DNA from: an uncultured Pseudomonadota bacterium
GTDB taxonomy: Bacteria; Myxococcota_A; UBA796; CAJQPC01
Direction of reading: 5' to 3'
DNA: 64,000 nt
NCBI GenBank assembly: GCA_913060515.1
Contig: CAJXRZ010000019.1
Span: 19,857 to 83,856, forward strand
Below, piece by piece: positions 11,245 through 14,237 of this stretch; position 1 is the first letter of the stretch; every line of letters begins with the position of its first letter. A program made the translations under genes and the position numbers. The notes under the pieces are model-generated. The model did no database searches. It was given only the letters and a program-made list of their open reading frames with translations, and had not been told where the DNA came from.

Positions 11245-11958
11245 TCAGATGGGACTCCTCATGAGGCTGATGAGGCCCGGAATGCTGGCCAAGATCAGGG
11301 GTAGGACGACTCCTGTGATTTGCAGGGCAAGGTGGCGCTGCGGAAGCACACCAACGGCCAGAAGGCTGCAGCCGATGAGTGGCAGGAAGGGCAGCGCCTC
11401 GGAATAAGCGCACGCGGCAGCAAGGATGCCCGTGAGCGCCAAGAGTGCGCCTCGGTTCAGGGCAGCATGGCCTCGCAGGCAGAGGGTGACCCCTCCGATG
11501 ACCAGAGCCTCTATGCCCAGGCGCATGGAGCAGTTCAGGGCCAACACGATCCCTACACCAATCCCCAAGAGCGGGACCACCCAAGGCCGATGTGGGCGCT
11601 GGACCAAGACATCGCTCCCGAGCAGTGCGATGCCGGCGAGGGTGCCGATCGCCAGGCTCTCCAACAGGGTGGAGCGACCCCAGAGGCTCTGGAGTCCGAA
11701 GCCCAAGGTCAAGGCCGCGCTCAGAGCCAAGGTGGCCACAGCCCAGCGCTTTGGCGCCAGCATGGGGAGCAAGAGCACGGGGGTGAGCACCATTCGGTAG
11801 TCGAAGGCGCTGTGGGGAGGAACGCTTGGAAGTCCCAAGAGAATGCTTCCAGCAACGACCCAACCCAGCCAGCCGCTCATTGCGATGGCCCGATTGCCCA
11901 AACGAGGCCCGGCCACCACCAATGCGATGGCCAAGGGCAGCAGCAGGGCCAAGCGCAT
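11245..11958 (-). CDS. Multi-pass membrane protein, unknown function
   Basis: Almost entirely hydrophobic helices; TGATG overlap with YceI gene. Confidence 0.7.
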   Translation of the reverse strand: MRLALLLPLAIALVVAGPRLGNRAIAMSGWLGWVVAGSILLGLPSVPPHSAFDYRMVLTPVLLLPMLAPKRWAVATLALSAALTLGFGLQSLWGRSTLLESLAIGTLAGIALLGSDVLVQRPHRPWVVPLLGIGVGIVLALNCSMRLGIEALVIGGVTLCLRGHAALNRGALLALTGILAAACAYSEALPFLPLIGCSLLAVGVLPQRHLALQITGVVLPLILASIPGLISLMRSPI

Positions 11959-12527
11959 CAGAGCTTCTTCTTGGTTCCCTCAATGGCGATGGTCATCGCG
12001 ATCTCGTCGCCGATTCCGTCTTCGTTGTAGAAGCCGAAGTCGGAGCGCTTGACCTGGAACTCTGTCTCAAAGCCGTAGCGGTAGCCGCCCCAGGGGTCCT
12101 TGCCCTCGCCGGCCTTGGTGATGTCCACGGTGATTGGCTTGGTCACGCCGTGGAGGGTCAACTCCCCGGTCGCGGTCCAGACGCCCTCGCCCTTGGCTTC
12201 GATCTGCGTGGCCTTGAAGCTGACCGTCTGGAACTCGCCTGCGTTCAGGAAGTCCGGGCTACGCAGGTGCTTGTCGCGCTTCTCGTTGTTGGTGTCGACG
12301 GACTCCGCCTTGACGGTGATGTCGATGGCGGTGGGGTTGCCCTGCTCGTCCACCTCGAAGGTTCCTTCAAAGTCGTTGAAGCGGCCCCAGGTGTAGCCAG
12401 CGCCGAAGTGAAGGGCCTTGAAGAGCACGGCGGAGTGAGAGGTGTCTACTTTGTAGTCGTCGGCGGCAAATGCCACGGCCGGCAGGAGAAGAGCAGTGAG
12501 AGCTGAAGCGGCAATGAGACGGCGCAT
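11958..12527 (-). CDS. YceI family lipid/polyisoprenoid-binding protein
   Basis: YKVDTSHSAVLF, GRFNDFEG, SVDTNNEKRDKHLRSPDF, GELTLHGVTKPI, RSDFG; signal peptide from ATG 12527. Confidence 0.93.
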   Translation of the reverse strand: MRRLIAASALTALLLPAVAFAADDYKVDTSHSAVLFKALHFGAGYTWGRFNDFEGTFEVDEQGNPTAIDITVKAESVDTNNEKRDKHLRSPDFLNAGEFQTVSFKATQIEAKGEGVWTATGELTLHGVTKPITVDITKAGEGKDPWGGYRYGFETEFQVKRSDFGFYNEDGIGDEIAMTIAIEGTKKKL

Positions 12528-12637
12528 GTGGCCTCCTGTTTGTTTCGAAGATGATGGTAATGCCCCCGGGCTGGTCTGTATTCCCTGTTTATTGGAACAA
12601 TGCATTCCGAGGCCGCGCGTCAGTTATGCTGTGCGGC

Positions 12638-12931
12638 ATGGAACAACTCGCTGAGGCCTTCATTGGCATGGCCGCTGTGCTTGGGGTCTTTGGGTCCCCG
12701 ACCGTGATGGTCGCCTTTTTTCTGAGCCACCGCCGCCAGATGAAGGAGCTGGACATCCGCCAGATCGAGGCGCAGACCAAGCTGGCCAAGGCACAGGGCA
12801 TGGTGGACCTGCCCGAATACATCGATAGCGACGATCCGCTGGCGGTGTCTGCTTACCGGCGCGCCAAGGAAGAGACGCTGCGCTCTTCGGCCAAGCACGC
12901 CGCAGCGAGCAGGCAGGGCAAGCAGGTCTAG
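12638..12931 (+). CDS. Small membrane-anchored hypothetical protein
   Basis: One N-terminal TM helix then charged helix; start at 12626 or 12638. Confidence 0.6.
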   Translation: MEQLAEAFIGMAAVLGVFGSPTVMVAFFLSHRRQMKELDIRQIEAQTKLAKAQGMVDLPEYIDSDDPLAVSAYRRAKEETLRSSAKHAAASRQGKQV

Positions 12932-12938
12932 CTGTTCG

Positions 12939-13463
12939 CTATTCCGCTGAGTCGATGCTCAGCAGGGCATCCTTGAGGGCGTTGAACTGGTTGTTCTGCC
13001 CCAGATCTTGGTTCGTCAGGTTGAAGACCCCGACGATGCTTCCCTCTGGATCAACGAGCACCACGTCTCTGTATTCCACGCCCCACTGAGACCAGACGGC
13101 GTCCTCCTCGGTGTCCTGTAGCCAAGGCAGATCGCGGCCGTCGGTGAAGACGTCATTGCTTCCCGCCTTGCCCAGCTCGTTCACGCCGATGATGGCGATG
13201 GAGTCGGGCAGCTCAGCTTGCATCTGGTCCAGGTAGCCAAACTGGCTACTGCAGTAGGGTCACGTTGCGTGACCGAAGTACCAGGCCGAGACCCGGTCCA
13301 GATACTGAGAGGGCGCCACCAAGCTCTCAAAGCTCGCGCTGGTGCTGTTGACGTCCTCCAACTCAAAGCCGGGCGCAAGGGCACCCTCTCCCAGTGGGGA
13401 GGGGCTCAGAACTGCGAGGGGATCAGCGTCGGGGGTGGCGCAGGCCAAGGCGAGTAGGAGCAT
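12939..13463 (-). CDS. Selenocysteine-containing thioredoxin-fold (AhpC/TSA, TlpA-like) lipoprotein, UPYC motif
   Basis: Track ORFs 13260..13463 and 12939..13223 are in one frame separated by a single TGA; read-through gives WYFGHAT-U-PYCSSQF (UxxC), APGFELEDVN upstream and RDVVLVDPEG downstream; 174 aa. Confidence 0.85.
13230..13251 (-). promoter_or_regulatory. Putative bacterial SECIS element
   Basis: mRNA CA-GUAGCC-AGUUU-GGCUAC-C-UG: 6-bp stem starting 11 nt after the UGA, GU-containing loop, lower stem with a bulged base. Confidence 0.65.
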
Positions 13464-13472
13464 GGGGCTCTC

Positions 13473-14237
13473 TTAATCCAGAGTATCGAAGAAGTCTTTG
13501 AGCAGGGAGCCGTCCCAGCTCTCGTTTGGACCGTGACCCATGCCCTCTACGACATGGAGGGTGCTCTGCAGGCCCAGCCCTTCCATGCGTGTCTGGGCAT
13601 CGCGGGCAGCGTCCACCCAGCCGCTGTCCTCGGAGCCGGCGATGTGGTGTACCGGAACGCACGCCAAGGATGCGACCAGCTCCTCGTCTGTCTCTGATTC
13701 GAAGGTGCCGGGCAGGCCGGTCAAGCTTCGGAAGGGCGCCGGGGTGTCCACGGCCAAGGGGTAGGCCACGCGGCCTCCCGAGGAGTGACCGATCAGGTGG
13801 ACTTGGCTGGAGTCGTGGTCAAAGCAACCCTGGAAGGCCGCCAGACTGTCCAAGGCCACTTGGCCGCGATCGCTTCCTGCGCCGCTGGTGTGGGGCACGA
13901 TGACCCAGTAGTCCTGCAACCCGGGCATCATGGCGATCCACGAGAAGTAGTTGTTCGTGGCGCTGCCAATGTCCGCTGGGCCGCCGGGAAGGAAGACCAA
14001 GACGGGCAGGATCTGATCGGGATCCTCGGGCACGCTGAGAATGTAGCTGCCCTTCTCGCCGTCTACCTCGACGAGCCCTTCCTTGAGCTCGGGACACGTC
14101 TCCACGGGCTCCGTGGCTAAGGGAACAGGAGCGGGACAACCCTCTTCGGTCTCGCCGGTCTCAGCGAGGCTGTCTTGGGTGTCGATGGGGTCGGCGTCGC
14201 CGCCGGAACAGGCCAGTAGTAGAAGCAGCATGTCCAA
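13473..14237 (-). CDS. Alpha/beta hydrolase (esterase-like) lipoprotein
   Basis: LLLLLAC lipobox; nucleophile elbow GHSSGG; GSED acid and GMGH His. Confidence 0.85.
   Translation of the reverse strand: MDMLLLLLACSGGDADPIDTQDSLAETGETEEGCPAPVPLATEPVETCPELKEGLVEVDGEKGSYILSVPEDPDQILPVLVFLPGGPADIGSATNNYFSWIAMMPGLQDYWVIVPHTSGAGSDRGQVALDSLAAFQGCFDHDSSQVHLIGHSSGGRVAYPLAVDTPAPFRSLTGLPGTFESETDEELVASLACVPVHHIAGSEDSGWVDAARDAQTRMEGLGLQSTLHVVEGMGHGPNESWDGSLLKDFFDTLD

Follow-up and report, generated by a model that had tools for sequence, protein, structure and literature searches.

A split reading frame in marine bacterial DNA very probably encodes one thioredoxin-fold selenoprotein of the TUGYCR family

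Two short open reading frames (ORFs) on the minus strand of the window, the 64,000-nt stretch of DNA analysed here, very probably constitute one genuine SECIS-dependent selenoprotein gene, a conclusion drawn from sequence comparison in which we have high confidence. The first ORF (13463-13260, 67 aa) terminates at a TGA (13262-13260), and together with the second (13223-12939) it forms a single frame of 174 aa when this TGA is decoded as selenocysteine (Sec, U), giving the product MLLLALAC...WYFGHAT-U-PYC-SSQFGYLD...SIDSAE (Table 1). A preliminary description had joined the two ORFs across the TGA at the motif HAT-U-PY-C and had placed a hairpin 11 nt after the UGA; its coordinates, motif and spacing all proved right when the sequence was read again. 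Its assignment of Sec to the codon is upheld by the Sec machinery of the genome, the corresponding column in homologues, independent assemblies and covariation of the hairpin. The encoded protein is probably a selenol/thiol redox enzyme of the cell envelope.

Table 1. Positions of the selenoprotein gene, its elements and the upstream gene within the window
Feature	Coordinates	Strand	Basis
Selenoprotein CDS, complete, 174 aa	12939..13463	-	ATG 13463-13461; stop TAG 12941-12939; NF053656 188 bits; AlphaFold2 model
In-frame UGA, codon 68, first position of U-P-Y-C, proposed reading Sec	13260..13262	-	Homologue column; assemblies
SECIS hairpin	13233..13249	-	Energy, covariation, fit to bacterial SECIS model
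Codon UGC of Cys71, predicted resolving Cys of UxxC	13251..13253	-	Invariant in family alignment; aligns with ResA and peroxiredoxin Cys
Codon of Arg132, invariant Arg at the thioredoxin-fold cis-Pro position	13068..13070	-	Alignment with ResA, BCP and AhpC
Ultra-short lipoprotein-type signal MLLLALAC, Cys8 the putative lipidated residue	13440..13463	-	Upstream in-frame TAA; homologues
Alpha/beta-hydrolase lipoprotein gene, upstream	13473..14237	-	Pfam Abhydrolase_1, 32 bits

The gene is an added member of a family that NCBI has already curated as a (seleno)protein, and the reading is therefore a correct call rather than a new kind of protein. The NCBIfam profile NF053656.1 (redoxin_TUGYCR) matches with 188.1 bits against a cut-off of 100, residues 31-169 aligning to positions 2-145 of the 146 in the profile. 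Members of this family, entered as 'TUGYCR motif thioredoxin fold (seleno)protein', likewise have Sec in T-U-x-Y-C, with TGA in most of them and Cys in a few. The window protein differs in its unusually short signal and in its motif, which is T-U-P-Y-C-S instead of T-U-G-Y-C-R. Four residues of the signature (T, U, Y and C) are preserved, P stands for G and S for R, and the same two positions vary in other members. A full-text literature search for 'TUGYCR' returned no paper using the name, and Pfam gave sub-threshold matches only, the best being AhpC-TSA (PF00578; 21.4 bits against a gathering score of 26), with Redoxin at 18.7 bits.

This family may also have been recorded under other names. 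The GOS selenoproteome study described a marine UxxC group, 'Prx-like 3' (pfam08534), with a weak Redoxin match and fusions to unknown domains (PMC2398784), and a 2026 review lists a 'Redoxin family protein, PF08534, UxxC' (PMC13188914). Marine origin, the UxxC motif, a weak PF08534 hit and the presence of fused members (here L030, L033 and L051) are common to 'Prx-like 3' and to the present family; by comparison of these descriptions, NF053656 may be the same family as 'Prx-like 3' and the 'Redoxin family protein'. The expectation that standard annotation would break the gene in two holds for most of the family's public protein entries, which remain C-terminal fragments of ~98 aa labelled 'hypothetical protein'. 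As this case shows, reading from sequence alone can spot a recoded UGA correctly.

The genome from which the window derives (6.87 Mb in 190 contigs, 95% complete) encodes selA, selB, selC and selD. The matches to selA (475 bits), selB (314 bits) and selD (268 bits) all exceed their cut-offs, and the tRNA-Sec (61.6 bits) lies above the Rfam cut-off and is called SeC, anticodon tca, by ARAGORN. The SelD match is located inside a 739-aa open frame (G000 C90:13959-14858, L018), where SelD appears to be fused to a further domain; Ndh-SelD fusions are reported in the GOS selenoproteome paper (PMC2398784).

Homologues were found by six-frame search in 46 of 61 related genomes, nearly all of them with exactly one in-frame TGA. 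When 30 order-level homologue loci were oriented and translated for column comparison, the Sec column contained only TGA (27/30) or the Cys codon TGC (3/30; L039, L046 and L050), within the context W[YF]F-x-H-x-T-U-x-x-C. A phylum-wide sample of 301 genomes yielded 51 matches above the NF053656 cut-off, 47 with one TGA and four with none. A contig search with the family alignment, in which Cys codons were used at the Sec column, recovered two Cys-form genes only, both in Pirellulaceae MAGs, because Cys codons stood for the Sec column in the query. One genome of the same class carries two tandem copies of the family ~400 nt apart, each with its own TGA (G101:C106:1159-2432).

Some bacteria decode UGA as Trp or Gly, and the Sec machinery is able to insert Cys when selenium is scarce, which makes general read-through, reassignment to Trp and Cys insertion by the Sec machinery conceivable fates of UGA68. 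We regard these as very improbable, since TGA is the commonest ordinary stop in the window, ending 22 of its 38 long ORFs (including most of those with high GC3), and a same-genus orthologue (L023) ends on a TGA exactly where the window gene has TAG; the codon is not reassigned, as had been claimed from the stops of other genes. TGA-free homologues, moreover, have Cys at the column and never Trp or Gly, and the genome provides a full selABCD set together with a SECIS.

The UGA is followed by 10 nt (CCCUACUGCA) and then by a hairpin, which accordingly begins 11 nt after the UGA and lies within the CDS. Its 17 nt comprise the stem strands GUAGCC (13249-13244) and GGCUAC (13238-13233), which form 6 bp, and the loop AGUUU (13243-13239), 16 nt from the UGA. 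The hairpin has an energy of -9.1 kcal/mol, and the same pairing in three Cys forms gives -6.7, -6.0 and +1.8 kcal/mol. For the 61 nt around the hairpin the generic MFE z-score is -0.4, which is unremarkable, and for that reason the hairpin in a lone sequence is weak evidence. As the z-score was uninformative, comparative pair counts were used, and the weight rests on the relatives. A scan of the locus against Rfam at E <= 10 returned noise only, with no curated SECIS family matched; bacterial SECIS elements usually have no match to an Rfam family.

Covariation among the relatives was assessed in an alignment (A2) of 42 nt from the UGA onward in 27 Sec forms. In this alignment 94.2% of the cells of the 6-bp helix are paired, with compensatory two-sided changes at five of the six pairs. 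None of 500 shuffles matched the observed values, and slid controls were paired at 20-53%. Compensatory stem variants include GUGGCC/GGCCAC, GUGACC/GGUCAC, CUGGUC/GGCCAG and CCC/GGG variants, and the loop is AGUUY in every Sec form. The stem changes shift the encoded residues in concert, from Ser-Ser...Tyr to Arg-Gly...His, as selection on the RNA structure would predict. The published model of bacterial SECIS elements specifies a stem of 4-16 bp, a loop of 3-9 nt with G among its first two positions, a UGA-loop distance of 16-37 nt and an energy of <= -7.5 kcal/mol; the window hairpin agrees with all four constraints (PMC13188914) and covaries. SelB carrying Sec-tRNA(Sec) would bind this hairpin, which is made of codons for S-S-Q-F-G-Y, and insert Sec at UGA68 in place of termination.

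The gene recurs, at 99-100% identity, in contigs assembled from one metatranscriptomic run and from three runs of marine DNA, and in all four of these independent assemblies the codon reads TGA, rather than TGC or TGT, and the hairpin is unchanged. The gene contains five strain-level SNPs, three of them ahead of the UGA and two beyond it, and all five are synonymous third-position changes. Substitutions between species show a third-codon-position bias on both sides of the UGA as well, and both halves are therefore translated in one frame. A pseudogene or assembly error, with a Cys codon (TGC/TGT) mutated or mis-called as TGA in what would be a broken gene or a Cys redoxin, would give just such a lone in-frame stop at the Cys column of a family in which Cys forms exist, but is effectively refuted, and left with a negligible probability, by conservation of the TGA across the order and phylum-wide, concordance of the assemblies, purifying selection on both sides and the covarying hairpin. 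Several seawater and marine metagenomes contain detectable sequence of the source organism.

AlphaFold2, supplied with the 30-sequence alignment, predicts a single compact domain that spans the UGA (pLDDT 95, pTM 0.89). In the Foldseek ranking of its neighbours, ResA, DsbE, TlpA-like proteins and the lipoprotein Etrx2 of pneumococcus come first, and the peroxiredoxins AhpE and BCP come next. By sequence, too, the best match is ResA; for the ResA/TlpA type, E = 1e-5 and the structural TM is about 0.8 on the target. Residues L35, D37, S42, W61, F63, U68, C71, Q74, F75, Q116, D117, W124, R132, D133 and L154 are invariant in the family alignment (A1).

The active site combines features of two groups. 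Aligned with ResA, Sec68 occupies the position of the attacking Cys of CxxC, Cys71 that of the second Cys and Arg132 that of the cis-Pro; aligned with the genome's own peroxiredoxins (hhalign probability 80-90%), Sec68 falls on the Thr of TxxC, Cys71 on the peroxidatic Cys, Arg132 on the catalytic Arg of BCP and AhpC, and Gly64 on the Pro of PxxxTxxC. The cis-Pro that precedes strand beta-3 is absent from the window protein, its position being taken by the invariant Arg132. In thioredoxin-like proteins this cis-Pro is conserved more strongly than CxxC, and in peroxiredoxins an Arg stands at its position (PMC2757866).

The window protein resembles ResA, TlpA, CcmG (DsbE) and Etrx2 in several respects: its thioredoxin fold has a central insertion, helix 1 carries a CxxC-type motif at its N-terminal end, and a putative lipid anchor would hold it outside the cytoplasm, where those proteins are likewise tethered by membrane or lipid anchors. 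It differs from them in having Sec for the first Cys, Thr for the Trp before the motif and Arg for the cis-Pro, and no cytochrome-maturation gene was found in its gene context. Shared with peroxiredoxins (BCP/PrxQ, AhpE and AhpC) are the Arg at the cis-Pro position, set in an R-x-x-hydrophobic-x-x-D-x-x-G strand, and a [LF]P-x-L-x-D motif; unlike them, the window protein lacks PxxxTxxC, carries its Sec three residues ahead of the peroxidatic position and scores below the Pfam gathering threshold. With a redox pair and Sec placement of reductase type, an Arg of peroxiredoxin type and neither the cis-Pro nor PxxxT, the family is therefore a hybrid, and its UxxC-plus-Arg site represents an uncharacterised combination of reductase and peroxiredoxin. 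Since cis-Pro and PxxxT are both absent, full membership of a family supports neither the reductase nor the peroxidase mechanism.

The same selenoprotein gene could encode a disulfide or sulfenate reductase, that is, a classical protein-disulfide reductase of the TlpA/ResA/Etrx type or one that recycles methionine sulfoxide reductase, acting without any peroxidase chemistry. We give this reading not far short of an even chance. It would agree with the nearest sequence and structure matches (ResA, DsbE, TlpA-like proteins and Etrx2), with a Sec at the attacking-Cys position of CxxC rather than at the peroxidatic position of peroxiredoxins, and with a DsbD_TM-family protein encoded elsewhere in the genome. 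The invariant Arg-Asp in place of the cis-Pro argues against it, as do the neighbouring genes, among which no cytochrome-maturation, Sco, Msr or CcdA gene was found at the loci searched.

An envelope seleno-peroxidase, in which peroxide would oxidise Sec68 to a selenenic acid, Cys71 would resolve the intermediate and Arg132 would provide activation as in peroxiredoxins, is a serious candidate that we nevertheless hold at less than an even chance. Alignment of R132 with the catalytic Arg of the genome's own BCP and AhpC points towards such an activity, as do the best Pfam match, AhpC-TSA, and the structural closeness of AhpE and BCP. Reductive removal of peroxide in the envelope is known from Caulobacter, and envelope peroxiredoxins exist, PprX being an example (PMC3322552). 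Against a peroxidase stand the missing Pro and Thr of PxxxTxxC, with Sec at the Thr position and Cys71 at that of the peroxidatic Cys, and an AhpC-TSA score below the gathering score. Because Arg132 replaces the cis-Pro at which proteins dock, as in peroxiredoxins, the substrate may be a small oxidant such as peroxide and not a protein disulfide. Other chemistries are improbable but retain a small share of our expectation.

A broader proposal places the TUGYCR family, as a living intermediate, between the thioredoxin-like reductases and the peroxiredoxins; it would act in marine bacteria as a lipid-anchored, extracytoplasmic seleno-peroxidase or other small-molecule redox enzyme. Such an intermediate would have retained the redox pair spaced by two residues (UxxC) while already having exchanged the cis-Pro for the Arg of peroxiredoxins. 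We offer this proposal tentatively and consider it rather unlikely as a whole; if true, an intermediate-type seleno-peroxidase would be an enzyme type without an earlier experimental description.

For the envelope selenoenzyme favoured here, a probable working cycle can be outlined. The mature protein would be tethered through Cys8 and a linker of ~25 residues and would act outside the cytoplasm. Sec68, which lies at the N-terminus of helix 1 where ResA and TlpA have their attacking Cys, would serve as the nucleophile, and Cys71 would resolve the intermediate through a selenenylsulfide. The enzyme would then be re-reduced by an envelope reductant pathway, for which the DsbD_TM protein could be the source of electrons.

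An in-frame TAA 12 nt upstream of the ATG shows that there is no longer N-terminus and that the protein starts with MLLLALAC. The residues of its lipobox are acceptable, but only seven residues precede the Cys and there is no basic n-region. The preliminary claim that the product is an exported lipoprotein draws its support from the homologues: a Cys-terminated hydrophobic stretch lies just before the domain in 27 of the 30 homologues, many with a canonical basic n-region, and the remaining three carry extra N-terminal domains. The leader of the window protein itself counts against the claim, being abnormally short and uncharged. The N-terminus is best read as directing export and lipidation at Cys8, as judged from its residues and those of its relatives.

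Ultra-short, uncharged leaders recur in the genus and its close relatives (MLLLALAC, MDMLLLLLAC, MLLFALAC, MFLFVMAC and MLLLLAC); they occur in the window at 13440-13463 (-) and 14208-14237 (-), as well as in L023-L029 and L060. Canonical signals with a basic n-region are found in more distant homologues. L030, L033 and L051 carry a further domain of ~200-250 aa at the N-terminus, and in L042, L043, L047, L049 and L051 the lipobox Cys is separated from the redoxin domain by acidic linkers of 40-80 residues built of D-A or D-T repeats.

The upstream alpha/beta-hydrolase gene (14237..13473), for which an exact look-up gave no record, is separated from the selenoprotein start by 9 nt, the gap given in the preliminary description. 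It is a probable operon partner in the genus only, as the pair is kept within the genus (L022, L023, L024 and L026), and no conserved neighbour was found outside it at 30 loci (+-1.5 kb). With no neighbour recurring outside the genus, the context therefore gives no clue to the substrate. A promoter and terminator scan detected nothing between the two genes and no promoter-like site in the region. A metatranscriptome contig (run X3, 2583 nt, ~99% identical) spans both genes unbroken; it is assembled and may contain DNA. The suggested co-transcription with the hydrolase is thus plausible, favoured by the short gap, the lack of a terminator-like site and the spanning contig, and tempered by the possible DNA content of that contig.

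The run X3 contig covers positions 12800-14207 of the window and reaches ~1.1 kb past 12800. Downstream, a convergent ORF of 126 aa (12551-12931, +), which includes a hydrophobic segment, stops 7 nt short of the selenoprotein's own stop codon. This ORF also overlaps the YceI gene (11958-12605, -) at the start of the latter. Its status as a real gene is uncertain, because its conservation does not extend beyond the nearest species (58% identity in L023).

The genome contains 31 matches of AhpC-TSA type, of which six besides the window gene carry one in-frame TGA. These AhpC-TSA/TlpA-like ORFs lie on contigs C28, C21, C43, C1, C132 and C119 of the same genome (G000). The sequences point to a rich exported thioredoxin-fold selenoproteome, and the at least six further candidates suggest that redox chemistry based on selenium, carried out in the cell envelope, is important to this lineage. 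Two of the six (L060, C28:12050-12415; L061, C21:6428-6799) belong to proteins of ~640 aa whose N-terminal part is a large repeat domain. Their C-terminal domain is TlpA-like, reads YFATW-U-PVC at the Sec motif and keeps the cis-Pro-type motif.
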